Shown: in pieces, positions 7,100-56,227 of the stretch | How the letters are laid out: each line of letters opens with the position of its first letter | How positions within the stretch are numbered: the first letter of the stretch is position 1 | Origin: Stegostoma tigrinum | Lineage: Eukaryota | Assembly (NCBI RefSeq): GCF_030684315.1 | Contig: NC_081383.1 | Coordinates: 11,040,761-11,104,760 of the forward strand | Direction: 5' to 3' | DNA length: 64,000 bases | Program-made: the position numbers and the translations under genes | The notes under the pieces: model-generated | The model's input: only the letters and a program-made list of their open reading frames with translations | Told to the model about the DNA's origin: nothing | Database searches by the model: none

Positions 7100-8160
7100 C
7101 CACACAATTTGTTTTCTTGTTCTAATTTCCAGCGTTCGCAGTTGCGTGAGGCTTCTCCCCCGCCCCGTTTTCGGGGATGGTTTGCCGTATGCGAATAGGG
7201 CGTCACCTACCTAACCGGCAACCACAATTCAAATTTCGGCAGAAAAGAATAATACAAAACGCGCATTGCCGACGAATTTGACGTTTCCTTCTCCTCCTCC
7301 TCCCAGTAAAAAGAAGTCCAAGCATGGCGGCTGCGGCAAAGGGAAACTACAACTCCCAGCGGACGACGCGGCCCGGTCCCGCCACACGGAGGGTCCCGGA
7401 TGGCGGGTTGCCATGGAGACGCTCTGACGTGCAGTGCGGGAGACCCCGTAGCGCTGCGGTTGTTGCGCAGTTTCAGCGTCGGTTGGGATTTTTTCCCCCC
7501 TTTTCCCCTCCCCCACCATCATTGCCGCTCTCGCTCGCTCTGTTTGTCCCTCTCAGTGTCGGTGAAGCGCAGGCGCCGAAGCAGCCGCCGGCGGTGCTGC
7601 TGCTGGAGGTGGAGGAGGAGGTGGTGGTGGTGGGGGTAGGAGGAAGGAAAAATAAAGTGAAAAGCGGAGCGCTAATCGATCCGAGCCGCTCGGTGACCGG
7701 ACCCGTTAGCTCCGGCGGAAAGGGGAGGGGAGAGAAAAAAGACATACAGACCGGCACAAAGAGAGATCCAGTGAAAATCGGAGAAAACGGCCGACCAACA
7801 CCGAGAAACCGCCTTGCCGTCGAGCCGCGCCGACAGCCCCGTTTCCTCCCCACCCGCCGCCATGAACAACCAGGGCGGCGACGAGATCGGGTAAGAGGCC
7901 GGAGAGTAGGCCCCGCAGCCTTAGCTTGAGTTTGGAGACCAAAGTTTTTCCCTTCAACGCGTGCGCGGGCAGCCGTTGAGGTTGATGGCGACGACTAGCC
8001 GCCGGAGTTTAATTTAACGTTTTCTTTTTTTCAAAAAAAGTCGTGTATTTATTTTTGTTTTCCCCGCCTCCCCGTTAATGACAAGGAAAGAAAACTTAAA
8101 AGGGACCCGGGAACAGAGGAGTACGGTAATGGCGCCTGGTGAAGGTCAATGTCCAGGCGG
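7100..8160. promoter_or_regulatory. DAZAP1: CpG island / DAZAP1 promoter and 5' UTR
   Basis: Abrupt rise in GC and CpG against an AT-rich, CpG-poor background. Contains a YY1-like ATGGCGGC (~7324), a ZNF143/THAP11-type ACTACAACTCCCAGC (7346-7360), an RFX X-box-like GTTGCCATGGAGAC (7407-7420) and a CRE half-site TGACGT (7425-7430). Confidence 0.85.
7862..7890 (+). CDS. DAZAP1: DAZ-associated protein 1, coding exon 1 (MNNQGGDEIG)
   Basis: CCGCCATG Kozak context, 29 nt, donor GTAAGA at 7891. Matches the vertebrate DAZAP1 N-terminus (human MNNSGADEIG). Confidence 0.95.
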
Positions 8161-38050: not shown

Positions 38051-38379
38051 CACTGTTCACCCCTGTTCCTGTGGGGATCTTATATGTCATTTAAAGAAAT
38101 ACAACTGAATTATCAACATTAGCAAACTGCTAAAGAGTGTGAAAATTGATTGCACGGCCTTTTGAACAGAACCCCTTTCGAAGCATCAAACATTTTTTAA
38201 GCAAAGAAAATGTGATAGCTGAAAGGTTTCCATTAGGTGTATTTTACAACACATGATTTACTAATTCCGTTTTAAAAATGAGGACTGTCCCTATGTTCCA
38301 ACAATACTTCACATAATATGTCTTAAGCTTATGTATTTGTTGCAGTTTTTTTTATTTTTATGATTTTTTTTAAACATAG

Positions 38380-38469
<90 letters not shown>

Positions 38470-38754
38470 TAAGTTGCATTGTGTTAAGTAATAACTTGTG
38501 TTGTACCAGATGTATACAGTACAGAGGAATGATCTGTGGCTATGTTTTTGACGTTAAGACTACAATTTGATTAGTTGATTTATTTCTGCTTTTTGGCTTG
38601 AAATATGAGGGAAGGTGGACTGCCACAGTATCTGTTGACATACTGCAGCCCGTCTTTGGTTCAATTTGTTGTTGGTGTGTGTGCCTCAGCACAGTGAAAA
38701 GTTGTGTTTTGTGTGCAGTACAGGCGGATCATAACATATAAGGATATAGATCAT

Positions 38755-38865
38755 CGGGTTTTGAGAAGATTTGTAGCTCAGGTTGAGTTTCTGGATGTGA
38801 GTTTGCTCGCTAAGCTGGAAGGTTAGTTTTCAGATGTTTCGTCACCATTCTAGGTAACATCAATA
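38755..38865 (-). mobile_element. Penelope pLTR fragment with degenerate hammerhead
   Basis: Reverse complement ...gatgttacctagaatggtgacGAAACATCtg..., same family as the 12297-12916 arms. Confidence 0.7.
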
Positions 38866-38939
38866 GGTGTTTAACAGGGCAAGACATACAAGCTTATGGC
38901 TGTGCAAGAGGTTCACAAAAGCAAGATCAGCATTATATT

Positions 38940-39400
38940 TGGAATTGTTTGGAATAGGGAAGAAATTGTTCTTAAACGAGTTGGAAGACAGTATTGCCAG
39001 GGTGGGAGAGTTCTTCAATGTTGGCAGCTTTTCCATGGCAATGAGAAGTATAGATTGAGTCTGCGGATTGGAGCTTGTCTTGTATGATTGTCTGGGCTGT
39101 GTATGTAACTTGCTGTAGTTTCTTGCCGTTCCAGGCAGAACAGTTGCTGTACCAAGCTGTTATGCGCTGAAATGGGATGCTTTCTATGGTGCATCTTTAA
39201 AAGTTGGTGAGGATCTGTGTGGACATGCCGAATTTCCTAAGCTGTCTGAGGAAGAACACGTGTTGTGCCATCTTGACCGTTGCATCTATGTGGGAAGTCC
39301 AAGGCAGATTTGGTGGTTATTGTCACTCTTAGGAACTTGATGCTCTCGACCCCTTCCACTTCACCTCCATTGATGTAGAGAGGGATGTGTCCTCCATCCT
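38940..39400 (-). mobile_element. Rex1/Babar-type LINE 3' fragment
   Basis: Reverse frames read FFLRQLRKFGMSTQILTNF*RCTIESI and ITAWYSNCSAWNGKKLQ, typical of Rex-Babar ORF2 C-termini. Confidence 0.75.
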
Positions 39401-40837
39401 CCCTTTGAACTACCATGTGAAACTTTAAACTTTTACCAAAAGAGATTGCAGGTATTTGTGTAAAATATCACTTCTTTTAAACAACAGCATTTTGAAGCAC
39501 TTCATAACCAATGACTTTTGAAGCATCATAATGTTGAAATAATAGTTCATTTGTGTCCAGTATGCTGTCAGCTTTCACAATGTGACAGTAATAAAGGAGA
39601 AGAAATGGCATTCTTTTTCTTTAAAAGAACATTTTGGGTGCTTTCACATCCAAAGCAGACTCCTTTTAAATTATCAACTGAAAGATAGCTCCTTCAGCAG
39701 TGCAGCCCACCTTCAGAATGTCAACCGTGGATATTTTGCATTGGACTGGTATTTGAATGCAGAAACGTGAGATTTAGGCCAAAGTGCTGTCACCTGAGCC
39801 ACAAGTGACATAATAAGAGCACTCTTATTAATAAGTATAGATATTTTTTTAATTAGCCTGCTAAGAGACATCTGTTGAATGGGACTTGAACTCAAATCTT
39901 TTTGCCTGGAGGTAGGGATACTACCATTGTGCCATAAGGGCCCTTATTAATGCAAGTGTATGTAGAGAGGTAAGTGCAGTTACCAGTCAACAAGTAGAAC
40001 TGTTGGCTATCAGATTTGGTAATCACAGGGTCTGAGGTTCCATAGTAGATGGAGCAGGGAATATTAGCGCCAGTTGAAAAGTAAAATAAGCTGGTATTCA
40101 TTGTTGTGAATGGAATTTTGTGCACTTTTATGAGGTTATATTGATCAGGAATAATCTTGGATGTATGCTAAGTATAGCATGCTTGTATCTTCCCCAGTCA
40201 TTGCTGTGCCACAGTGAGTTCACAGTTTTGAAGTTTCAGCAGTGTTTTATCACTCACCCCCAAAACATTGCCTTAATGGTTGATCAGGGATCCCCATTGG
40301 TCACAATTTCTTATGTTGGACCTGCCTGGATACATCCAGGGTGTGACATGACAGACTGAAAACCCACCACCTTGATCAAGGCCAGAAAGAGAATATGGTC
40401 GAGTTGAAGCTATGCTGGGCCTTGTTTTTATATGTACGTTTTTACTTTTCACCAGAGAATGGAAACCTTGGATATGTGTGGAGTTACACCCTTTTTCTCT
40501 GACTTGAGCACCACCTGCCACCTTTGTTCTTCTCATTGACTGCAAGAATGATGGAAAGACCTTGATTGAAGGGCAGTAATTTGCACACAAGATCCTGCAA
40601 ATAGTAAACATTTGAAAGATGTCAAAACAATTAGATCACATCTGAATTTCAAACTGGGACTACAACCAACAAATTTGTTTCCAGTGAGTGCTGCCATCTG
40701 ATCCCATCGCTTGCAGCATGCATTCATTCAAAGATGTAATATGGTCTAGTTTTAAAATGGTTCAGCTTTCAGAAATGCAATCCTATTGCAAACTCCATTA
40801 AATCTAAATTAATCAGCCTGTTGAGAATTTTCAATGA

Positions 40838-41098
<261 letters not shown>

Positions 41099-42469
41099 TG
41101 AATTCGCTGCTGAATTCCGTTTTCATTGGCAGCTTTCTAAAAGATATTTTGACATAGGCAGAATGCAATATTGAAAGCTGTTCACAAGATCATGTGCTGC
41201 TTTAGTTGGCTGCTTCAATTTTCCAATTCAGATAGATCAGCATGCTTTTTGTTTCTTCTGTGGGTATATTTCATTTACTGTTGCTGCTAATAGGTAATGT
41301 GCGAATAAGTAATTTTGGACATTGCCTTTGGGGACAGTGCTGTAATCGTACAATGGAATTCTACAGCAAAGAAACGGGATATTTGGTTCATTTTCCTTAT
41401 GCTGATGAGACAGTTTGACCTGTTTTGCCTTTGCTAGCTATTCAGGGGAGCTTCCTAATTAATCTCATTCTCCTTTTCCATTTTAGAAATTTGAGTATTT
41501 TTTACAATGGTGAATCCTACTGTGCTGCATCCTGCTAGGATAAAGGAGGCTGAGCAGCCTGGATGAAAAAGAGAGGAGTGTGTTTCAGTATTTTTGAGTT
41601 GAGAGAAATGTTGCCAAAGCTTTTCATCTCATATTAGCCAAAATAAATGTGTGAATACCAAATTTCAAACAATTGCAACAGCGTAAAGTACATGAGAAAA
41701 GGGTGCTAAATGGTCGCAGTGTTGCTATTGTGAAACAACGATTGCCCTGTCAAAATCCTGGGTAATTCTGAAGAGGTGCGATGTGTATCTGTATTCTGTT
41801 GCTCTATAAATGATGCGCCGACCCTTGGATGATTACTTGAGATGGCAAACATAAATAGTCTGTTTTGCAAAAGGTCATAGACAGAATCTTAACATTCCCA
41901 CATTACCAAATACTAGCACTAGAAGTTAAAATTTGCCCACGGTTTTTTGTTAGAAAGAGATCTTGTGCTAAGTTTTCTGGAAGGATGTTTCAATTTTCCA
42001 TTGCATTAGTCACTGCAGAACCTTCATCTCCAACAGATGGAATGAACTTTCTACCTCTGAGGCCACCATCCTCAGTTGGCTCAGATATTATGTATCTGGG
42101 ATGGCTTTCCCAAACTGAAAATAATTTCAAATCGTTCAAACTGCTTGCTGCTAAGTTCTGAGCACTACATACACTTCATTCATTTTTGCAACGTGATAGG
42201 TTAACGGTAACTTTGACCCCCTTAAATTCTGCCTGCACAGATTGAAGCAGATCAAATTTTAAGTTACGAAGGAGGCATTGGTGAGTGCTACTGTTGCTGG
42301 ACTGGTAGTTTAGAGACGAGTGCCCTGGGGCTGTTTGCTAAAGTCTCACTTTTGCAAACGGTGACATTTGAATATAAGTAATTAAACTGGAATGAGAACT
42401 AGTCTATAGATAATAAAATATGAGGCTGGATGAACACAGCAGGTCAAGCAGCATCTCAGGAGCACAAAA

Positions 42470-42503
42470 GCTGACGTTTCGGGCCTAGACCCTTCATCAG
42501 AGC
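42470..42503 (-). ncRNA. Minimal hammerhead-ribozyme motif, intact core with 3-bp stem I
   Basis: Reverse complement GCT CTGATGA A GGG-tctagg-CCC GAAAC GTC AGC, within a short element at ~42408-42505. Confidence 0.7.
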
Positions 42504-42639
42504 ATTTCTAATGATTTTGAAATCCCTGTCTGAGGCACTGTTCATTTAGTGAGGGGAAAAGCTACCATCATGTGGTCTCATCGGTAAGTGATTCAGGTCC
42601 ACAGTGTAATGTGTTTTGCCTCTTAATTGCCAGTGTTTG

Positions 42640-45270
42640 AAAGGATTGAAACTGGGTGGACCACTCAGCATTGACCCAAGTCACTGGAAATGACAGCAGC
42701 GCACAGACCTGCCGACCTTGTAAGCCCTCACTAATGTGTAGAGGTTTGTGCCTGCTAATGCTTTTCTCAGGCTTGTACCTAACAATGCCCCAGACTCAGC
42801 CATTGTCATCCCTGGCAGGTCATACCCACCAGAGATGGTGGCAGTGTGGTATACAGCCTGGAAGGGAGTTGTCCTTGGAGTCCTCAACATGACTGTGCAC
42901 CTTATCATATCTCATGCTATCAGGTTAGACCAGGGCAGGGAAATCCACTGCTCTCTCTCAGTGGATGAATCATCGTGCCTACATTTTGAACAACCCACAA
43001 AGAATCCTCGGGGTAGCAAGAAGTTCATTACCAAGAGTGAATCGGGAGGACCACTGCTGTCTAAACTGGGATAGTCTTAAAGGACATAAAATGTAGGAGC
43101 AGAACCAGGCCTTTTTGCCAATCCAGTATACTCCACTGATAATTGAAATCATGGCTAATCTGATGATCTGTATCTTTTCTCCATCACTCTTGACTGCCTC
43201 ATCAAAATTGTGTCTATCTCAGCCTTGAATGTACTTAATACTCCAGCCTCTACAGCCCTCTGTGGTAAAGATTCTGCCAATTTTTTGGAAAGTTCCCATT
43301 TCCCTAATTTTATATTTTATCCCAAAGGAAATGGAGACCAACGTTCCATTTATTTTCCCTATTTTATCTACTAAATTTGTATGAAGCTTAAAAAGCTTGC
43401 ATAGATGAGGACTCACAAATCCCTTATGTCAATATTTGAAAAGGAAGGAGACAGTAAACTGGTACCTGTATGCTAGTTAGCTTAATGTCCGTTATCAGAC
43501 TTTACCAGAATCCAAGGATTCTCGGGAAGATTACTGCCAATGCATCCGCTGTCTGTGTAGCTGCGACTTTTATTAGCCTGGGAAGCATCCCATAGCTGCT
43601 TGACTGGGTTTGCAGCAGGTGGTGAGGGAACCAACAAAGACAAGACTTGTTTTACCCTGTCCTTTCCCATCTACCTGACACACATGTCTGCCCATGATGA
43701 TATTGGTAGATGGATGCCACACAGTTCTTGGGGAGACAGAATCCTCCCTTCAAGTTGAAGGTGCCCATCATAGTTTTGTGTCGCATTGCTACCATGCTGA
43801 TTTATTTGTATTTCAAACAGGCATAGCCCAAAATTGATTGACAGTGGTGTTCTGTGGGCCATCAGTGGAATTGTATTCTGTCACATTCTGTAATCTCATA
43901 GGTCAGCAGTTACTTGGCTGATTTGAAGAGATCAGCCCTGGCTCAGTGAAGAGTATAGGAGGGTATACCAGGAATCACCGTCAGTTTGGGGAAGCTATAG
44001 CATGTTAGGCAGTGGATGCAACTTAATGTAAGACAAAGCTAAGTGATCTCACGACCATGGATCAAATCTAAGCTCTGCAGTCCTGCTGCATATTGAGAGT
44101 TAAGAATGGTGGTAGCAAATAAAATAACTCCCTCTGCGAAGAAGACCTTCCACAAATGAGCGCATATTTAATATTGGGAAAGCCTAGCACCCCTAATTGT
44201 AAAAGACAAGTCTGTTTCCAAGTCTGCCTTCATCCAGAGGTGCTGAGTGGTGGGTGACCTATCTTTGGCTCTTCCTGAGGTCCTCTGCACCACAGATGTC
44301 AGTCTTCAGCCAAATCGACTCACTCCACTTGATACAAAATGACTGACGGCACTACTTAGTGCACAGGTTGTGGGCTTTAACAGCAATCCAGAAATTGTTT
44401 TGAAGATTTGTGTTTCAGGTTTAGCTGCAACTTGTGTGGAGCACTTCTAGGATAATTACAGCAGTGGCATCAACCTCTCAGTTTGGGAAGTTGCTCGGTT
44501 ATGGCGGTCTGTCAGTGTTCATTGTCAGCAGTGTGATGGAAGGTGTAATCAACAGTGCTGTCAAGTGTCCTTCCACCATATCCTACTTGCAGATACTCAG
44601 TTTGTGTTTTACCAGGCCCCAATCGGCGGCTTACAGCTTTGGTCCAAATATAGACAAAAGAGTTGGTCTGTAGCGGGGTAGTGACAGTGACTGTATTTGA
44701 CCAAGAGTGGCAATAAGGAGCCCTAGCAAAATGAGTCAGTGGAAATTGGATAAGCTCTGTATTGTTCGGAGTCATACTTAGCAGCGAGGAAAGATGGTTG
44801 TGGTTTTGAAGGTCAGTCATTTCAGCCATAATGTTTCTGCAGGAATTCCTCCAAGGTAGTTTCTGCTTTAATGCCTTAGCTGCTTCAGCTGTTACCTTCC
44901 TAATATCATGACGTCTGAGGTGGTAATGCGGAATAATCAGCAAACAACGTTCCATACTACTTACGATGATTCATATCAGATTGAAGTAGCCTGTTTCCAA
45001 ATCCAGCAAGAGCTGGATAATATTGAGGCTTGGGCTGATGTGTGACATGAAGGTTACTTGTCACTTAAGAGCCAGGCAGTGAACATCTCCAATAAGAGAG
45101 CATTAAACCACCACCTCTTGACATCCAGTGATATTGCCATAGCTGAATCCCCTACTTTTGATATCCACGGGTTACCATTGACCAGAATCTGAACTAGACC
45201 AGTAGTATTCATACTGTGGGTACAGAAGCAGATCAGTGGTTGGGAAATCTGTGTCAAATAACTTAGCTCC
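42640..45270 (+). mobile_element. Degenerate long LINE of a second CR1-clade-like family (EN and RT remnants), with nested antisense CR1 piece at ~43085-43600
   Basis: RT-like ttcctccaaggtagt..., gataatatt.aggcttgggctga and gggttaccattgaccagaa.ctgaact motifs. The same family occurs at 53110-53965 and 59950-60590. Confidence 0.65.
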
Positions 45271-46435
45271 TGGAGTTGTACCTTGTTTTCAAAAATTGAA
45301 TCAGATTCCTTTTCATCTTTTGCAGTTATTGCAGTGTTGGTAAGTGCCTCTTAACACTAGAGATGTGTGTTACAGTATAAAGCCATTTTTCTCATGACTG
45401 ATTATCAGGGGCTGTTGGTATGTGGATTAGTTAATGCTTCTGGAAAAGCACCGTGTAAATTTCATAATTTGAGGAACAGTATTTGAAAGCAAGTCAACTT
45501 CATTATCACAGCAGCATAAATTTCCATGCAAAACATGGCTATGCTGTAGGCTTAAGAAAAAGGTGGAAGAGGATGAAGCCATGTTGCCTTTATATGTGAA
45601 GGTAGAGAGATGGCTGACCTATTCATCCTACTGTTTGAAATAGGGCTGTGGAACTTCTGTCATATTCACAACAGAAGTTGATAGACCTCTGGAGACTGGT
45701 GGCATCAGATGAAATGGAGACAGTGCAGGAATATAGCATTGAGTTAGATGACCAGCTGTGATCTAATTGCAGGGCAGAGTAGGCTCGATAAGCTGTGTAG
45801 TCTACATTAGTTGTCCTACATTGCTAGTGAAAGTTTCAAAAACTGTGAAGTGTCATGTCAGTAGGTGGATGGTAAAATCTTCTGACCAGGAAAAGTTATT
45901 TCATTCAGACAAGAAACAGTTAGCCAATGGTTGCTTAATTATGACTACAGCTTTTAGCCAATTTGTGGGATTTTTATTTGCCATATAGATAGTGTGCCCT
46001 CCAATTACCTATCTTCAGCTTAGATGGCATGACTTCTGAATGAGAAGTCACTGCTGGGATCAGCGTTGGTGCACTGAACAGCGTGCATGGACCAGATCTG
46101 TAACCTCATGTTGCATGTGGGGGACTGATCTACTTTACTGGCTTTTACATTTCTGTTGCCTCCATGTTTCTTCCCCTGTATCCAGCTCAAGGTGCCAACA
46201 TTTTATAAAGTCAGTATAATTGTACTTGTTTTAAAGATTGAAAGGTGCATGAGCTCTTTTTTCAATTAAGTGGGGGCCATTGTAAGCAATAATTTAACCT
46301 TGTTTTATTCAACATTTACAAGGTGAACGAGTATATGCACATCGCAACTATATTTAGTACTTCAGTATCAAAACAGTTTCCTGGCTAGTCCAGGTGTGTC
46401 TTGAACTCCTGTTAAAACTATAGAGGTTAAATTAA

Positions 46436-46600
<165 letters not shown>

Positions 46601-46623
46601 ACAGTTTGCAATGGAAATGTGTA

Positions 46624-46629
46624 AATAAA
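46624..46629 (+). terminator. RPS15: RPS15 poly(A) signal AATAAA
   Basis: AATAAA 24 nt after the stop, giving the short 3' UTR typical of RP genes. Confidence 0.85.
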
Positions 46630-47129
46630 ACTTGTTTCACTGAATTTAACTTCATGGTTATTCTTGAGCAGATTGACAACTTTCCCACTTCTTGCACTGT
46701 AGGCTGGAACGTAAATATTTTCTCTACATGTATTTATCAGGCATTTCTGTTTTTTGTTTGCATAGTTCTTTTTGCAGTATGTTTAAATGAAAGATTCATT
46801 TTTGCTTTGATCCTTTATTTGCGAATTCAAGCGCAACTTGCAACATTTAAATTGCTCCGCAACATCTTTGAGGACTTTTGTATAAATGGAACATGGCTGA
46901 TGACTTATGAGCCTTTTCTTCCACAGCAGATAGATCGGGAATTGGAGCAGTAGACCAATTCTGTCTAGCTTTATGTACCAGATCCATAGAGGCTAGATTT
47001 GATGACTTGGTGAAACTGAGTGGATGTCTGATAATTTGCATTAGAATTGCTTGTGAGGTGGTCTGCGGGGTTGTGGATCTGTTTCAAGTGGTGTCATTTG
47101 AGAATAATTGTAAAGAAATTCTATAGTAG

Positions 47130-48560
47130 AGGTTGGCACAGGGGAAGGCTTAGTGCTAACCATATTGAGCCAGGAGCTGGAGTAGCAGATGGTCTCGAGT
47201 GATGCTGAGATTGTTGTGGACAGTGCGTTTGTTGAGATGTACATGTTTAAATACTTCTGTGAGAATTACTTTCTTGGGATAGCAATGGAGGTCAAGCCCA
47301 TAGCATTATGTGTAGCTCTACTGCACAAAGGAGGAAGTGGAATGGCAGGGCTACAGTGAAGTGGACAGGCAGATGTTTCTGTAGCCACAGAAAATATTCC
47401 AGAAGAATGTTGAGGGAAGGGGAATTGTTAGTGCTTTAGGGGAGGCTTTAAACTAGAATGGCAGGCAGTTGCTAACTTGAGCAGGGAGACAGGATAGAAA
47501 CTGAAGACAAATATAATAAACAAATTTGGAAAGATGAGAAAACAGATCTGAAAAACAAATGGCCGTAGTGCAAAATAAAGCTACAATGACAAACAAGGTT
47601 AAAAAGACAGGTCTAAAGAGTTCATGTTGTAATGTGTGAAGCATTTTCAATAAAGCAGATGAATTAGCAGTGCAGATAGATATAGTTATATAGGTGCAGT
47701 TACAGAGGCAATGCTGCAGGATTACTAAGGATGGGAACCGAGCATCCAGACATATTCATTATTTAGGAAGGGCTGATGAAGGAAAGGAGGTCGGGTAGCA
47801 TTATTGGCAAAGTTGTTTCAATGTAGTGAAACAGGCTATTGGTTTAGATATGCATGATGTGGAATCTGTATAGGGAGAGATGAGAAACACCCAGGGGCAA
47901 AAAATGCCCATATGCAGTGTTTGCAATGTCAGAGAAGGCATTAAATGAGAAATCAGATTCATTTAGCACACAGTTAAAGTCACTTTTGTCTTACCATACT
48001 ATAGGCTGGTCTCTCATCAGAGAGATTCCTGGTAGATTTTTAACCTGAAGATCACGACATCTCAAGTGAGGGTGGCCTGATGGCTACCTCTTGGTAACCT
48101 TGGCCAGTGTGGGAAGATTGAACTCTCACCATTCTGTTGTAAAACATGTGATAACAGAATGTTTGGAAAGCAGTAATGAGATTCGACAGCCAGCATGGGC
48201 TTATGAAAGGCAAGTCATGCTTAACAAATCTACTGGGATTTTTTTGAGGAAATAGAATTATAGAATCCCTACATTGCAGATAGATGGTATTTGGGCCATT
48301 CGGTCTGTGCCAACCCTTTGAGGAGCATTCCACCCAGAACCCCTTAAGAGTATGGCATGCAGTTTTTTCTCTGTATTGGAGAGACGATTTCTTTGCTGTA
48401 GAGGAAGCACTGCTGCGGTTCACTAGGCTGATATCAGGGTTTGCCGGACTGTTCTAATGAGGAGTGATTGGTTTGACTAGGCTGTATTCACCAGAGTTTA
48501 GAAGGTTGAAAGGGAATCTGATGAAAACGTGCAAAATTCCAACAGCTGAGATAAGGAAAT
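47130..48560 (+). mobile_element. Fragmented CR1-like LINE (5'/endonuclease and RT pieces)
   Basis: NKADELAVQID-like endonuclease start, and cagcatgg.cttatgaaaggcaagtcatgcttaacaaatcta (QHGF.KGKSCLTNL). Confidence 0.65.
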
Positions 48561-48594
48561 ATTTCTTCACTTGTTATTAAAACTGTGGAAAAGG

Positions 48595-48955
48595 TGGCAC
48601 TGGCATGGTGACTCAGTGGTTAGGGCTGCTGCCTCTGTCAGGGACCCGGGTTCAATTCCAACTCACTGTATAGACTGTCTGTATGGAGTTTGCACATTCT
48701 TCCTTTGTCTGCGTGGGTTTTCTTCAGGTGTTTTGTTTTCCCCTCTCAATCCAAAGATGTGCAAGCTGTGGATTGGCCATGCTGAATTGCCAAAAGTGAC
48801 CAGGGATGTGTAAATTAGGTGCATCTGCGATGGGAAATGTGTGCTAACAGGGATAGGGAAGGGGGACTGCTCTGGGTGGGATTCTCTTGAGAGGGTCAGT
48901 GTGGACCTCTTGGGCTGAATGGCCTGTTTCCACTCCAAGGATTCTCTGATTCTGT
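48595..48955 (+). mobile_element. HE1-type tRNA-derived SINE, near full length
   Basis: A box TGACTCAGTGG, B box GGTTCAATTCC, V-domain-like tggagtttgcacattct...ctgcgtgggttt, and HER1/CR1-type tail gggctgaatggcctgtttccact. Confidence 0.85.
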
Positions 48956-50426
48956 GAATGGAGAGAAAGTGACTAAAAATGCAGCATTGAGTTAGAGGAG
49001 CAGTCGTACTTACACTGGTGGTACAGGGTCAAAGATTGGATAGTCTACTCCAGCTCCTAGTTTCTATACTTCTAAGTGTGGCAGCAGTAGGTTAAGCATA
49101 TACCCGAATGATAGGTCACCCTCACAGTGAATGCTATATGTGAATTCCTTGTTCTAATGTTAAGGCTGAGGATACATGGAATTGTTACAGTGTGGGAGAG
49201 GCCATTCAGCCCGTCATACCTCCGCCAACACTGTCCAATGAATATCTCACTTAATGCCATTCTTTTGTCTTCTCCATTGCCTTGCACATTGTTCTTTTTC
49301 AAATAACTGCCTTGTACCCTTTTGAATACCTCATTTGAACCTGAAAGCTGTAATAATTTGCAAAACAAATCGCAACCAAAATAGGTGTGTACTTTTTTCA
49401 GGATGAAAGCAAATAATATCCTCCCACTTTGAAAAGTTCTTATTTATGAACATCAGTTTGTCCCTCTGCTGCACGTTGCCTTGTAGTCTGTAGTATGTTA
49501 GTCCTTTACAGGTAGAAGCGTGGATACAGGTGATTTTACGTATTGACACATTTAATGCATCAAGCAAATAAAGTAAATTTGTTATAGAAAAAAAGTTGCA
49601 AGATTCCAGTTGCAATATTTTTGCGCACTTACTAAACAATGGGAATACAGTGAAAATTCACTAAGTGTTGAAGCTCATGGGAATAGGTAATGAGGGGGAC
49701 ATAACAAGTTCCAAAGTATTAAATATTTTAAAAAGGTAAAGGGAGACCTTGTTGCAAAAACTGTCAGGTTACTCTTCTTTATGTTCCTGCTATTGTTGAC
49801 CGACATGAGCCCCCAGTGAAGGAGTACCTTATACATCATTTTCAAGTGCAATTACTACATTGCTCTTCCCCAGCTCTCTTGCTACCTTCTCCCTAATTAT
49901 CAGATATCTGAACTTCACATCCTGATCTTAATTGTTTCCCATTGGTAACTCTGCCTTCAGCTGCTTCTGTCCAAAAACTGTCAGTTCCACACTCTCTCCC
50001 CCCTCCAAACTCTACCTTTTTTTCCTTTCCCCTCTGCTCTATGATGGTTCCTGAAGCCTGTCTCTGACCAAGGTTTTAGTAATGTTTCTTAAATAGATGG
50101 GCAAAGTTTAAAGGAAGTTGGACAGATGTTTGAAGGGAGCGGTGTCAAATATGGTGAAAAGGCTGGGAAATCAGTAATCATGTCTATGAAGAGAAGACCA
50201 TTCTATTCTTTTACGCTTTCTTCAGCTTTTATTGTTAGTTTAGTACATAACCAGATTGCCTGATCATTCCAACAGTTTTTCATCACCACTAGTTATTGCA
50301 ACAGAATCCAATTATTACACAATTCTCCACCACTATACCCAATCTTCATCCTTCATGTAACACACTTGAACATAAACCCAATTAACTGCTAACCAAACAT
50401 CATAACCCTGATTTATGACCGGAAAA

Positions 50427-50432
50427 TTTATT
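50427..50432 (-). terminator. Candidate poly(A) signal of the connexin gene
   Basis: TTTATT on + (AATAAA on -), about 80 nt after the stop. Confidence 0.55.
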
Positions 50433-50514
50433 TGCTATCAGACCAATTAATGAACAGGAGACAAGCTTACTCAATACACACAATCTGTGTATACCATGCA
50501 TGTTTAAAAAAAAA

Positions 50515-51111
50515 TTACAGGTGATATATGCCGCTTTTAAAAGTACATTTTGCTACTGAAGAGTATATCTCTGTAACCCCAATCAAGAGAGAAGCACATG
50601 AACATATGTACATCCATATCACAAAGACATCTTTCTGTTGGCTTTTCAACATTGTGCAAATCACAGTCTTTTCACAGGGAGTTATGTGACATTCAAATAA
50701 GTGTGGCCTCAGTATATTTGGGTAGAGCATATGATGCAAAAACAGGAAGAATCCTTCAATTAGTGTTTTGGCAATCATGTTGATAAAGCCTGTTGTCCAT
50801 TCTTTGGTCTGAGACACATACAGACTGTCTCTGTTGTATAAATAGTTTGCAGTCGAGAGGGTGAAAATGAACACTATTTGCAGTGTGAATAAGGTAAATG
50901 GTGACATAGGTGAAAACTGCGTATAACATTGGTGGTGACAGCCCACCCGGGTGGAATTACACTTCAGATCGAAAAAGTCATCCTTCCAAATGGTGAATGC
51001 ATTGATGATAAGAATGAGGGAACGAATACCGAAGATTAGAGCCAAATAGTTTCTGACACGGGATGAGACATGGGCTCCAGTGCCACTCAGGAATGTCAAG
51101 GTCATCTCCAT
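50515..51111 (-). CDS. Divergent small connexin (gap-junction family), 198 aa
   Basis: Four hydrophobic segments. EL1 C51-x6-C58-x3-C62 and EL2 C141-x4-C146-x5-C152. Connexin-like W-x-D, P-x-S, LQ, K..E in TM3, K.VF..M and TE in TM4. No stops in the ORF. Branch point (GCTAAT), pyrimidine tract and AG acceptor 20 nt before the ATG (exon edge 51131), as in typical connexin genes. Confidence 0.9.
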   Translation of the reverse strand: MEMTLTFLSGTGAHVSSRVRNYLALIFGIRSLILIINAFTIWKDDFFDLKCNSTRVGCHHQCYTQFSPMSPFTLFTLQIVFIFTLSTANYLYNRDSLYVSQTKEWTTGFINMIAKTLIEGFFLFLHHMLYPNILRPHLFECHITPCEKTVICTMLKSQQKDVFVIWMYICSCASLLIGVTEIYSSVAKCTFKSGIYHL

Positions 51112-53109
51112 GACTGAACCCTTCTGTAGTTCTATTTAGAGAAAGAAATTTTTTAAAAAAGCAGATTAGCATTGGCATCTCTTTAAGCATTTTTCTGTGT
51201 TACTTTTTGCAAACATTGAAGCCTTCCAATTCAATGTTTTCTACACAATTTAAGGTCAAGTTTGTTCATGCTGCCTAGGGAATTATCATCTGTTTTCTAT
51301 TGATCTAAAATACTTAAAAAATCAAAGCCTAAACTAAACTTCTCCCAGATCTGTTGAATTTTTGCAGCAGGTCAAGCAGCATCTGCGAACGTGTTAACAT
51401 TTTGTGTGAATGAGTCAGAGAGCCAAAAGGGCATAAAGTATGGAGGATATTCATTCCAAAGCTGAAAATCTTAAAATCAAGCTGTTGTTAGACTGGGAAC
51501 AGTTCAGTGATGGGGGTCTGGCCTTGGTAAGAATTTGGGTACAGTTAGTACAAATTTTGATCAGCTCAAAGTGAAATAACATCTGGTGATTCTGAAATTG
51601 AATCTGGCCATTCACAGTGGCAAGGGAGAGGAATAATGAAATAAATAGCTAGGGAATGGGCATTTTTTTTTAACAGAACACAGCCTACTATCTCTGAAAC
51701 AATTTTAACCACACTGCGAAGCCCATTTCTGAAGGAGGATCTAGGACCGAAATGTCAACCAACATGCTGTTTGACCTGCTGTGTTCATCCAGCTCTACAC
51801 CTTGTTGTCATAGAACATAACAGCTCAGCACTTGACATCACAATTTTGAGGAAATTTCTGCTCATCCAAAACCAGATGTCTGAAAAGCAGTGTGATAGGT
51901 TATGGGGAATGAAAAATTTAAGAAAGATGGACTTGAGCTAGAGCTGGATGAGCTTCATGTATTTGTGGAACGTGACATCTCTTGCTGCTTGGGGCAGCAT
52001 GTAAGTGAGAAAAAACTGGTTGGGTGACAAGGAGATGTCCTGGGGAGACTCGAAGTAACAGCATGGAAAGTGGGTAGAAAAGCCACGCTGAACTAAAAAT
52101 AAGATAATTTTGGAAAATAGATGGTTGGGTTTGGAGTTGAAAGTTAATGAAAACAGAAAATACTAGAAATAATAGAGCAGGTTGATGATGTTCAGAGAAA
52201 GAAATGACAAGCATTAACTGAAAGCAAAACATAAAATATCATAGCAACCCACAATCTCAAACAAAAATATTCGGCAGGTCCGCTCTGTAAGAGAAAGACA
52301 ATAGGGGTATCCTTTCAGTTCTGTGATTTTTCATTGAGAGCAAACATCTTTGAGGAAGAAACTGGAACCTAAAATGTTTTCACTCAATTTTGTCAGAGTT
52401 ACCTGGAGTTGTAGTATTCAACATGGAGGATGCAATTTTTCTAATTCTTCACCTAAGCGTTTCCAAAATTCCTTTCAATCCTGTTGACGGTGATTTGGAA
52501 TTAAAGTATTCTTGCTCCTCATAACGTGGACTCTGCGTATCTGCGTGTTTCTCCAGTGACAGGCTTTGTTTAAATGTGAACAAAGTCGAGGCAGTATGTT
52601 TACCTATAAAATGTTCAAATGAGATTATGCAATTCCCAGAATGGGCTGTAGCTTACTGCCACCAACTCTGTCTATAAACTGAAATTAAAAGCAAAATTCA
52701 CTTCCCTGTTTGAGTCTTAAAAATGTCAGTATATGAGTGGATGAAGTGGAAAAATGTTTTCAATTAACTAAGATAACATTTCAGGTAAGATAACTTGAAA
52801 CATAATAGTTGTACCTCAGTATTTGCTGAAGTACAGCATTCTGTTTCCCGTAAAAGACTGTGCTTATAGCAGTTTCATTTTTACTTCTGATGTTCAAAGT
52901 ACCAAACACACTTTTTTTGGTCACAGCTAATGTTTGTTTGGTTGTGTACATTTTATGTCCTGTGCATTATCACCAGCATTTCCAATAATCTCTCCAATAT
53001 TCCTGTCAAGTGAAACTCATTGCACATTCACCTTAGATCACGTATATCTATCAACCTGACTTTGACCCAGCCACACAGAAGGAATGTTGGAAGTGTTTTT
53101 TTTTTCAAA

Positions 53110-53965
53110 TCAGGCTGGTGAGCGGTTTGGAGAGGAACTCACAGGTGGTTGTGTTCCCATATATCTGCAACGTTTTGTCTGTAGATGAAAATGGTAGTGG
53201 GTTTGGAAATTTCTGTCCATGGTGAATGTCTGTAGTGCATCTTGTGGATGCTACTGCTCACTGTGGTGGAGAGAGTGAATGTTTATGAATATGGTGCTAA
53301 TCAAGGAGGCAGCTTTGTCCTGGGTGATATCAAGCTTCTTGAGTATTGTATTGTTGGAGCTGCAGTTGTTCAGGCAAGTGAGCACTGTTCCATCACACTC
53401 CTGACCTGTGTATTGTAGATGGTGGATAGGCTTGGGGAGTCAGGTGAGCTACTTGCTGTAGGGTTCCTAGCTTCTGACATGCTCTAGTGTTTGAACACAG
53501 CCAGTTTTTATAATGGCTATTCCAGTTCAGTTTCTGGTCATTGATAACCCCCAGGATGTTGAATGGATGCTGCTCCAACAGCTTCAAGAAGTTTGACTCT
53601 GTCCACCACCACCTTCATTCCTTGCCCCTCACCGCCAACGCACAGCAGCAATGTCTTCTATTTACCAGTGCACTGCAACAATTCACTGAGGCTCCTTCAG
53701 CATGTTCCAAACCTATACGTCCTTGGAGGACAAGGATGCATGGGAACAACTTGCACTTGCAAGACCCCCTCCAACCCACACGTCTGCCTAACCAGGAACT
53801 ATATCACTACTCCTTCATTGTTGCCAGAACCTGGAACTCTTCTTTTATGGTTATAAACTTCCCCTTGCCTTCCATTCCCTCAAGAACTGCAGTGATTCAT
53901 TAGCACCTTTCCCAGGCCAATAAATGCTGCCACAGCCAATGATGTCCACATCCTGTGAAGGAAAA
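53110..53965. mobile_element. Two opposed fragments of the same LINE family (- 53110-53565, + 53565-53965)
   Basis: Overlapping element segments in opposite orientation. The + copy ends aataaatgctgcc...atgaat. Confidence 0.65.
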
Positions 53966-56227
53966 TGAATTTCCAGTTCTCCTTTTAAGTTAGTGATTAC
54001 TGTTTAGTACAGAGAATGATGCTTTACAGTAAACAGTGCTGCACTGCAAACCTCTGCTGCAACTCCACCTTTCATTTATATAACCCTGCAATTTACATGC
54101 AGAAGAGAAACAATGGAAAAATGCTTTGCTGAAGCGTAATGAGACAACATTTGATACAAGGCTACCTAAAGGTGGTGTTGGCATAGGTGTTGGGTTCCTA
54201 CTTTACAGTGACTACATTGAAATCAAATCTATTTTTCTGAGCTGTAGTTTTATTTTTGTTGGTTAAGATTATGAAAGGTGCTATAAAAATGCAAGTCTTT
54301 ATTTCCAATGTAAGGAATATTAAGGTGGTCTGTTTCCAGTACATTGTAATCTTCACTTGCACCATGTGATCTGAATCATCAGTGGGAGGTTGACTCAAAT
54401 CTCCAGTTGGATGGCTGTAATATTTCTGAAAGTGCTCCAGGTTTTCAGGATAATTTGACTCCCAGTTTGATGGTTGTGTAAACCGGCTCATCAGATAGCA
54501 AAGCCCACTCTTATTCCTATTACCTTTGTGGTAATGTTCTGGAAACCACTGGGTCAGCCTGGGCAATCAATTTCAAGTGTTTTTGTTTAAATTTCAAAAA
54601 TATATTTTATTTGTAAAAAATATTTTTATAATGCAGTTTGGTTCTGTAAAATAGCATGTCAAGGAAATAAACACATCTGGTTCTAATGAGGGGTGGTCTT
54701 GTAATGCAGTGGTAACATCACTACCTCTGTGCTAGAAGGTCCAGGTAAAATCTCATCCATGTCTCCTAATCTAGTCTGGACCGATTCACTGAAAGTAATT
54801 TATAAACACATAGGAAAATGGCACATCTGTCAACACCATACCTCCATCTGTCTGGAAGTAGTACCAATATACACATATCAAACTGGTGGATATACAGTGT
54901 TAAGATCAGCTAATTCAAAAGAACTCAGCGTATACATAATTACAGATATACACGTAGTTTCAAAACCAGCTGATTTTTTAAGTTTGCTTCTTTAACATTT
55001 TAAACAAAGAATCTGGTAGAGGTATGATGTATTCAAGAGATTTAACTTTTTGAAATCCAGCAGCACACCAGACTGGTGTTATACTCCACAAAGGTAATAT
55101 GAAAGAAGCACTAACAGGATGGTTATAGTATATTCTAGCCCATATAGTGCAGACCCGATAACTTCATTAAACCATAATATTATATCAGGACAGCATTGCC
55201 ATTAGATTATCAACAGGGTTTACAGGCCCCACATTTCCTAAGTTTGTTCCCAGCACCACCTATTTTGGTCAAGAAGGTCTGGGGCCAACAGAACTACCAG
55301 GTGTTGGGCAGCCAATGGGTTTTATTGAGAATGTTGTCAAGGGTAAGTTTATGAACAGTCTGGGGTCTTCCGATTTCCTATCAAGCACAGAGTGGGAGTA
55401 GAACCACCTCCGAGTGGAAGGGTGCGTGCCCCAAGTGAGGACTGGGGAGAATGATTTCCAAGCAGACCCAAAGTACCCCCCATTCCTACCTGAGCAGTGC
55501 TGTCAAAATTTGTACCTTGTAAAGGATCTTTACACTAATGCTGCCAACAGTTACCCTTGGAGCAGAGAAGGCTGACGGGGACATAATTGATGTGTATATG
55601 ATTATGGATAGGAAGCAACTGCTCTAAGGTGGAGGGCAGGATGTTTGAAGGTTCAAGAACTGCAACTCGGTTGCGGTAAATAAAATGCTATTTGGAAAAT
55701 TTACAGCTGCCTGAATTTCAGATGCAGTATTTCTTTTTCAAAGTATAGGAAGATCTCAAGTCACAAATAAGTCACCAATCTCCTTTTAAAAAAATTATTT
55801 ATATTATTCTTTTAATTAACACGGTTTCTCAGTGTTTGATGAAGCACTTTTTGAAGTGCAGTTACCATTGTAACGTAGGAAACGTGGCACATAATTTGCG
55901 ATAGTAAACCGACAAACAGCAGTGTATTCATGTCTGATTATCAGTTTCTGGTGATAATTATTAATTATTATTAAATATGGACCAAGACACCAGGGTAAAG
56001 TTCCTTGCTGTACTTTGAAATAATGAAAATCATAGAATCCCTGTAGTGTGGAAGCAGGCCATTTGGCCTGCTGAGACCACACTGAGCCTTCAAAGAATGC
56101 CCCACCCAGACCTCACTCCTCCAACCTATTTCTCTAAACCCACCTTTCCCATGGCTAATCCACCTAACCTTCACATCCCTGGACTGAAGTACTCCATAAC
56201 ACTTTTTAGATCCAGTTGAGATGGCTA

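Follow-up and report, generated by a model that had tools for sequence, protein, structure and literature searches.

An unnamed, fast-evolving connexin orthogroup of jawed vertebrates with a conserved glycosylation motif on a docking residue

A short open reading frame next to RPS15 in the zebra shark, Stegostoma tigrinum, raises the question of whether it is an intact connexin gene, to which branch of the family it belongs, and whether a connexin with so many altered positions could still connect 2 cells. All positions given here are those of the window, i.e., the whole stretch of 64,000 nucleotides that was analysed (assembly GCF_030684315.1, contig NC_081383.1, positions 11,040,761 to 11,104,760 of the forward strand). 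The gene and its neighbour are laid out as follows.

38380..46644, plus strand: RPS15 exons 38380-38468, 40858-41092, and 46487-46644, from spliced contigs and PF00203; tail to tail with the connexin
52403..52545, minus strand: upstream exon, from a contig of run X12 and RefSeq model P0002; the 5' limit is the contig end
51132..52402, minus strand: intron of 1271 nt, GT..AG, from one X12 contig; the acceptor lies 20 nt before the ATG of the 198-aa frame
50065..51131, minus strand: second exon with the entire connexin domain and the 3' UTR, from the contig with 0 differences; the 3' limit is the contig end
50515..51111, minus strand: connexin ORF of 198 aa (P0001), from translation, Pfam, and structural model
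50427..50432 and 50228-50233, minus strand: first and second AATAAA, candidate polyA signals from sequence

Translation of the minus strand from 51111 to 50515 gives 198 aa and a stop codon without any internal stop, exactly as described in the initial annotation. This ORF is enclosed in a stop-free frame of 206 codons, the second longest such frame in the window, and a length of 206 codons is reached in 0 of 40 shuffles of the window sequence. The splice acceptor proposed 20 nt upstream is confirmed by a 1210-nt contig from run X12, which spans 52545-52403 and 51131-50065 with 0 mismatches and skips the intron, thus joining 52403 to 51131. Since X12 also contains contigs with spliced RPS15 ends, this run is likely RNA; the splice evidence is a single contig from a single run with unrecorded library type, and data of the same kind may underlie the RefSeq model. 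The joint at the connexin intron is absent from runs X1, X4, and X6 (4 runs compared over 38300-56000). The connexin gene is intact and probably expressed. As for the downstream AATAAA pointed out initially, the signal is indeed present (50432 and 50233), but the contig runs past both copies to 50065, so both are candidate sites.

The 198 residues match positions 15-212 of the S. tigrinum RefSeq entry XP_048415672, "gap junction beta-7 protein-like," without a difference. The 212-aa form begins at an in-frame ATG at 52424 in the upstream exon, which makes 198 aa one of 2 possible starts; the Kozak context is better at the 198-aa ATG than at the 212-aa one. The upstream exon also contains an out-of-frame uORF of 15 codons (52522-52475, minus strand). 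Within 51112-51131 (minus strand), bamboo sharks and rays have a Met 4 codons before the first Met of the zebra shark protein, where the zebra shark has Lys, and an ancestral start may have been lost in this species.

The adjacency to RPS15 holds: the plus-strand ribosomal gene ends near 46644, so that its 3' end faces that of the connexin. The first coding exon of an APC-family gene, which we take to be APC2 rather than APC, lies on the same contig 89 kb beyond the connexin start codon, with one or more further APC-family exons 200 kb on. The position of the connexin between RPS15 and the APC-family gene is seen in this one genome. At the other end of the window, positions 7862-7890 (plus strand) carry the first coding exon of a gene inside a GC-rich island, presumably DAZAP1, the expected RPS15 neighbour.

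The zebra shark gene is a member of the connexin family. A PF00029 search, suggested in the initial annotation, reports a clear match of 103.6 bits versus a cut-off of 31.3 (E 1.7e-29). The best solved-structure relatives by sequence are Cx32 and Cx26 (E 4e-25), Foldseek assigns the predicted fold a TM of 0.84 to Cx32, and the nearest ESM Atlas clusters, which have no usable taxa, are connexins. The AlphaFold2 model, computed from a 15-row alignment (pLDDT 78), has 4 long helices (17-42, 71-94, 101-129, and 157-197) and 2 beta-hairpin loops. The 4 membrane segments initially reported are therefore seen in the model, although a plain hydropathy scan reveals just 2 peaks at the threshold chosen. 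The connexin domain lies within one exon behind a 5' exon, which is the layout of the family, and the connexin cysteine spacing noted before is found at the expected places.

50926..50961, minus strand: extracellular loop 1 cysteines C51, C58, and C62 (C-x6-C-x3-C), from sequence; present in 28/28 of the clade described below
50656..50691, minus strand: extracellular loop 2 cysteines C141, C146, and C152 (C-x4-C-x5-C), from sequence and clade alignment
50632..50649, minus strand: LKSQQK replacing SRPTEK (R184>K, E187>Q, K188 kept), from alignment

All 6 cysteines are kept in 28 of 28 clade proteins, with spacing C-x6-C-x3-C in the first loop and C-x4/5-C-x5-C in the second.

To which connexin the gene corresponds can be judged from the remaining family members in the same genome. 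A six-frame PF00029 search yields 29 matches, comprising 25 ordinary connexin loci, this gene (2 matches), one very divergent locus, and a fragment beside locus L010. Beta paralogues, labelled after those whale shark entries with matching starts in the available part of the PMC7914757 supplement, are gjb1 (L013), gjb3 (L016 and L018), gjb7 (L020), gjb8 (L012), gjb10 (L017), and gjb11 (L021 and L023). The query is 28-32% identical to beta paralogues and 20-29% to the remaining ones. The divergent locus (L028:1471-2190, plus strand, contig C61) is RefSeq gjz1 (P0018). Since gjb1, 3, 7, 8, 10, and 11, and likewise gjz1, each have their own gene in this genome, the locus next to RPS15 is an extra paralogue and not gjb7, gjb11, or gjz1. 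The trees show no well-supported sister group for it among gjb1, 3, 7, 8, 10, and 11, and it is absent from the 24 sequence headers seen in the PMC7914757 supplement (30 of 45 places).

Individual identities fail for the following reasons. The RefSeq label gjb7 is rejected because the true gjb7 is L020. The cartilaginous-fish beta connexin gjb11 (Mikalsen 2021, available in part) resembles this gene in being small (one copy has 222 aa) and in its position at the base of the beta subfamily, but its sequence in the accessible part of the PMC7914757 supplement has canonical motifs, and its 2 copies lie elsewhere in the genome and are 28% identical to the query. gjz1 is equally very divergent; however, it is a separate gene on another contig, has 15% identity, and falls outside the clade in the tree. 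Cx23/GJE1 is also small and divergent, and mouse Cx23 makes hemichannels rather than junctions, according to partly available sources. In contrast to the 6 outer cysteines and single domain exon found here, it has 4 extracellular cysteines and 3 coding exons; its rejection is based on these features. The trees contain no GJE1, and the genome search does not return multi-exon GJE1.

Regarding the distribution of the lineage, 3 word-based searches report sharks and rays alone (9, 14, and 14 proteins). The elasmobranch-only range that these suggested is overturned by a full profile search of 1.84 billion representatives, for which 150 matches were listed and organism names covered 10 of the 150. 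Among the 150 matches listed, the proteins ranked above the first ordinary beta connexin (127 bits) include P0007, chimaera P0024 (181 bits), caecilian P0025, axolotl P0026, sturgeon P0029, lungfish P0030, and frog P0031, as well as 2 teleost double-domain proteins, and a motif screen of the same matches adds 2 unnamed records, P0043 and P0075. Because one representative per 50% cluster was searched, absence of the clade in teleosts or mammals cannot be read off these results. The teleost "Cx32.2-like" doubles (P0027, P0028, P0039, and P0041) are rejected as members: they keep W77, have neither the 159 residue nor the motif discussed below, and those of their domains that were placed in trees group away from the clade. 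With 9 isoforms or same-species duplicates set aside, the clade comprises 28 proteins with support of 100/100, representing 26 named species and 2 unnamed records (12 sharks, 6 rays or skates, 1 chimaera, 3 sturgeons, 1 lungfish, 3 amphibians, and 2 unnamed). Existing names of its members are beta-1-, 2-, 3-, 4-, 5-, 6-, or 7-like.

The 15 elasmobranch proteins form one clade (100/100 in a 40-row tree with gjz1 left out), and their tree follows the species tree. The chimaera-to-frog clade is supported by 100/100 and has a stem of ~1.6 changes per site (14 family rows of 33, with 8 of 41 rows left out). When long branches are added (gjz1, gjd3, and teleost doubles; 34 of 41 rows), 13 family rows group together with 100/100 and the long branches are not attracted. 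The clade sits inside the beta clade with 98/100 in the 34-row tree, which is unrooted; within it, lungfish and sturgeon are off their species-tree place with weak support. Position 159, which follows the third helix, is occupied by an extra residue in 28 of 28 clade proteins and 8 beta paralogues, and is a gap in the 17 other paralogues. According to AU tests on the wider set, 2 of 5 placements are rejected, namely, union with gja1 (p 0.0003) and with gamma/delta (p 0.043), while gjb1, gjb11, or a place just outside all beta connexins (p 0.39, the tree being unrooted) are not. For elasmobranchs alone, union with gjd2 is the sole rejection among 8. The gene may have originated as a derived duplicate of gjb1, gjb11, or gjb3/7/10, which is compatible with these tests. 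A reciprocal profile made from 7 bony-vertebrate members is just partly positive: zebra shark, 5 other sharks, devil ray, and chimaera score higher than every beta connexin, but the electric ray and skate proteins are ranked among them (147-151 vs 140-155 bits). Support for the orthology of the bony-vertebrate members thus comes from the tree and shared changes, and not from synteny.

Judged by its sequence, the gene belongs to an unnamed, fast-evolving, beta-related connexin orthogroup of jawed vertebrates. The unnamed lineage proposed in the initial annotation is upheld insofar as no orthogroup name was found and the phylogeny gives one clade (100/100) without a well-supported sister among the named beta orthogroups. 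However, orthologues are already annotated as beta-like, the chimaera one was noted in 2021, the range extends far beyond sharks, and AU tests do not fix the exact place relative to the beta groups. No paper naming the lineage, and none joining connexin, RPS15, and APC2, was found in the literature searched, the scope of which stopped short of subscription journals and preprint supplements. In the available text of PMC7914757, gjb11 is the sole cartilaginous-fish-specific group named, and some connexin-like genes are left out; gjz1 is named, on zebrafish chromosome 12, in PMC9073686 (available in part). The PMC7914757 supplement, as far as accessible, prints first and last codons for an elephant shark orphan, "Cm-gjb5like-XM_007898730," that equal the termini of P0024, the chimaera member of the clade. 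There it is a singleton omitted from analysis, whereas here it is tied to 27 other proteins and a shared motif. The present results add an orthogroup omitted from the main vertebrate survey, which databases misname in 7 ways.

Residues are compared in Cx26 numbering, which is taken from shark gjb8 (L012), gap-free versus Cx26 over 1-224, and the Cx26-type protein P0035. All substitutions listed in the initial annotation are borne out by the alignment (E47D, Q48F, D66T, H73P, R75T, W77F, P87L, SRPTEK>LKSQQK, and no W3). E47D, however, is mainly a cartilaginous-fish trait, with D in 19 and E in 7 of 28 clade proteins. Positions W3, H73, R75, W77, P87, D179, R184, and N206 are each kept in 0 of 28, and N176 and E187 are nearly lost (1/28 and 2/28, respectively). 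The gating network was initially described as rebuilt; it is certainly changed, but with R75, R184, and E187 retained in 0, 0, and 2 proteins it looks dismantled rather than rebuilt. Best kept are Q80, E147, and K/R143 (28/28 each), R32 and N54 (27/28), and W44 (26/28), followed by D50 (25/28), D46 and K188 (24/28), and an N-terminal L-S-G (27, 27, and 26 of 28). Position 184 is K in 16/28 and position 61 is R or H in 19/28. The docking positions Q57, K168, and T177 are partly kept (13/28, 10/28, and 14/28), and positions 57, 168, 176, 177, and 179 each hold 7-8 different residues within the clade. New residues have appeared in the loops, with E at 175 in 23/28, P at 73 in 26/28, and F at 77 in 24/28; at Cx26 P175/N176/D179 the query has E147/K148/I151.

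The minimal size reported before applies to the cytoplasmic loop, where the Q80-to-E147 span is 41 residues versus 67 in Cx26 (35-52 in the clade vs 55-69 in beta connexins), but not to the tail, which has 17 residues after E209, the same as Cx26 (5-47 across the clade). A class II PDZ ligand at the terminal IYHL is dropped, since C-termini vary widely across the clade, a Y-x-L/I terminus occurs in 5 of 28 proteins, and 2 sharks end in a shifted frame. In these sharks, P0011 and P0009, the tail beginning at the E209 codon corresponds to the query read in a shifted frame (50515-50575, minus strand), which suggests that small frameshifts arose independently where helix 4 ends. The whale shark protein P0003 is without 8 residues of the N-terminal helix that are kept in all other sharks, owing to a deletion, a model artefact, or decay.

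The first extracellular loop contains a motif directly on a docking residue.

50950..50958, minus strand: N52-S53-T54, N-x-S/T on the Cx26-N54 docking residue in extracellular loop 1, from the motif count across connexins

The pattern N-[^P]-[ST] at N54 is found in 27 of 28 clade proteins, 0 of 144 other connexin matches scored, and 0 of 25 shark paralogues; the latter 2 groups make up the 169 other connexins, with 1 of 145 matches unscorable and gjz1 counted apart. N52 is the sole N-x-S/T in the query protein. In the clade the motif reads NST in 20 proteins, NSS in 3, NTS in 3, and NAT in 1, the exception being P0075 with EAA. Its middle residue is S in 23, T in 3, and A in 2 of 28 proteins, the third is T in 21 and S in 6, and the next residue has 8 states. 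In other connexins the third position takes 15 different residues but never S or T. The motif behaves like a selected one, as seen in the alignment, because the middle residue varies, T and S alternate at the third position (in separate branches), and N and S/T are lost together in P0075, the lone protein without N. The 28 proteins are related, so that 27/28 does not stand for 27 independent events. According to the model and sequence, N52 directly follows a disulphide cysteine, ~10-13 residues past the first membrane helix, which is at the edge of the minimum distance for glycosylation. The inclusion of docking residue N54 in a conserved glycosylation motif is new here; this motif and the loss of EL2 docking residues both go beyond the initial annotation.

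In pannexins, glycans on the outer loops block head-to-head docking, and to our knowledge connexins are generally unglycosylated and docking. No paper on glycans blocking docking was found in the literature searched. As described in the available part of PMC5414816, Cx26 docks through N54, L56, Q57, K168, N176, T177, and D179, with N54 in the EL1-EL1 docking bond; D46/E47/R75/R184/E187 with D50-K61 form its calcium-linked network, and the outer acidic ring, residue 61, and the N-terminal segment are pore-side features. Human Cx31.3 forms no junctions, with loss of N54 and D179 as the suggested reason, and the R75/R184/E187-type network is almost fully conserved across human connexins, Cx31.3 included (PMC7455182, available in part). 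Pannexin-1 is an unopposed channel whose outer loops are N-glycosylated (PMC3808535, available in part). Compared with gap-junction connexins, the clade has neither their complete docking-residue set (N54, Q57, K168, N176, T177, and D179) nor their salt-bridge network (D46/E47/R75/R184/E187), and it does carry the mark of the pannexin-like mode, a conserved outer-loop N-x-S/T (27/28).

The best reading of these sequence features, with a probability of about 0.5, is a glycosylated, non-docking, pannexin-like hemichannel. The gene is real and spliced, its product has the connexin four-helix fold in the model and 6 cysteines, and it falls into one clade from chimaera to frogs; in the alignment, the EL2 docking residues D179 and N176 are lost, Q57 is unconstrained, and N54 lies within N-x-S/T. 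The asparagine of the motif would be glycosylated in the ER, and every subunit tip would then bear a glycan that prevents head-to-head docking. A predicted glycan on the docking asparagine makes an unpaired single-membrane channel likely, rather than a cell-to-cell junction. The subunits would still make a hexamer with a pore, because R32, Q80, E147, R/K143, the N-terminal helix, and the acidic ring (D46, D/E47, and D50) are kept. With R75/R184/E187 gone, gating would depend on the calcium site around D50, and calcium would close a pore that passes ions or small signals, e.g., ATP; this step is the weakest one.

The formation of a pore is the point at which another reading enters. In Cx26 the network joins neighbouring subunits, and it is kept even in the hemichannel-only Cx31.3, as far as the available sources state, so a homomeric pore may not assemble here. 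In this other reading the protein is a glycosylated, non-docking, non-conducting tetraspan, i.e., a modifier subunit that assembles together with beta connexins and leaves them undocked, or a fold-only membrane scaffold. This we consider somewhat unlikely. The inter-subunit network is lost wholesale (R75, W77, H73, and R184 in 0/28; E187 in 2/28), as are P87 and W3, evolution is fast, and the whale shark model is shorter by 8 N-terminal-helix residues; however, the acidic ring (D46, D/E47, and D50), basic residue 61 (19/28), and L-S-G (26-27/28) are conserved.

As for docking, the clade could alternatively consist of true gap-junction connexins with a private docking code, in which N-x-S/T is structural and unoccupied and the remodelled loops self-dock alone. 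Variation of positions 57, 168, 176, 177, and 179 (7-8 residues) is unlike a conserved self-recognition surface, and S/T at position 56 occurs in 0 of 169 other connexins scored, which makes such a code seem clearly improbable despite the 6 cysteines, the retained N54, and the fixation of E175, P73, and F77 in the loops. Zebrafish Cx23 forms junctions with 4 cysteines and an aberrant loop (PMC3920103 and PMC10598745, available in part), which suggests that sequence-based docking predictions can fail.

Selection metrics bear on whether the protein functions at all. Over the long term constraint is visible, with 41 of 162 gap-free columns invariant among 15 elasmobranchs at a tree length of 3.7, whereas simple arithmetic gives ~4 invariant columns at a uniform rate. 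Recent evolution is fast, as estimated from the coding sequence, with dN/dS about 0.5-0.9 on 9-16 differences. A 253-nt contig piece from a related species has 16 coding differences, a level similar to the 5-10% in nearby non-coding pieces of the same run, compared with 1 of 233 nt in an RPS15 exon, the latter being far below the connexin piece. The 9 differences listed out of the 16 give 5 changed and 3 silent codons, and all 5 changes equal those in P0003. For these 9 the pN/pS ratio is 0.5-0.6, rising to 0.7-0.9 if the others, too, are as in P0003 (95% ranges 0.08-4.7). A beta-connexin duplicate in decay, under relaxed selection and largely or wholly without function, would fit a dN/dS between 2 close sharks that is indistinguishable from 1 and the frameshifted or truncated tails in several sharks; moreover, databases list intact models alone, so broken orthologues would be missed. 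Decay is, however, highly improbable given that 26 named species, among cartilaginous fish, sturgeons, lungfish, and amphibians, have an open frame, that the 15-elasmobranch gene tree follows the species tree, and that there are 41 invariant columns and a spliced contig. The signs that the initial annotation regarded as damaging are accordingly mixed: dN/dS is indistinguishable from 1 and 2 tails are frameshifted, but the frames are intact and the contig is spliced.

Returning to the non-docking hemichannel, its nearest relatives by sequence are GJB1/Cx32 and GJB2/Cx26, to which its best structure matches belong and with which it shares a probable place in the beta clade (98/100 in the unrooted tree), the 159 residue, the short loop, and L-S-G. 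It differs from them in identity (28-33% over conserved domains), a stem of ~1.6 changes per site, the loss of W3, H73, R75, W77, P87, D179, R184, and N206, and the N54 glycosylation motif. The closest functional precedent is Cx31.3/GJC3 (mouse Cx29), which also has no D179 and makes no junctions, but Cx31.3 is a gamma connexin with N54 changed to His and R75/R184/E187 kept (PMC7455182, available in part). Pannexins resemble the clade in working mode alone, as unopposed channels with glycosylated outer loops (PMC3808535, available in part); unlike them, the zebra shark protein has no innexin family match and has connexin cysteines and a connexin fold.

The wider view, that a subfamily of at least jawed-vertebrate age became a non-docking glycoprotein by capping N54 with a glycan and discarding R75/R184/E187, converging on the pannexin solution, perhaps matched independently by gjz1, is tentative, and we would rate its chances as slightly below even. 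If true, a conserved glycosylation motif on a docking residue, from sharks to frogs, would break the unglycosylated-and-docking rule and provide a natural hemichannel-only connexin, as well as a natural experiment for separating the conserved residues used in docking from those used in the pore. Human Cx26 mutations at R75, W77, D66, P87, and R184 cause deafness or skin disease, and the clade tolerates losses at all of these positions, which bears on the role of those residues. D66H is listed among Cx26 disease mutations in the available part of PMC7455182.

Several other divergent connexins were encountered. In zebra shark gjz1 (P0018), the first loop cysteine is likewise directly followed by N-S-T, and R75, D179, and SRPTEK are missing; judging from this single gjz1 sequence, gjz1 is possibly a second, independent glycosylated non-docking connexin. 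The unnamed records P0054 and P0145 are further short divergent connexins without R75, which fall outside the clade, on the alpha side. In the teleosts Centroberyx, Seriola, Anabas, and Channa, proteins P0027, P0028, P0039, P0041, P0175, and P0177 have 2 divergent connexin domains per chain of 360-460 aa, and the unnamed P0038 is double-domain too. These could be true tandem connexins or models fusing neighbours; the layout recurs in 4 genera.
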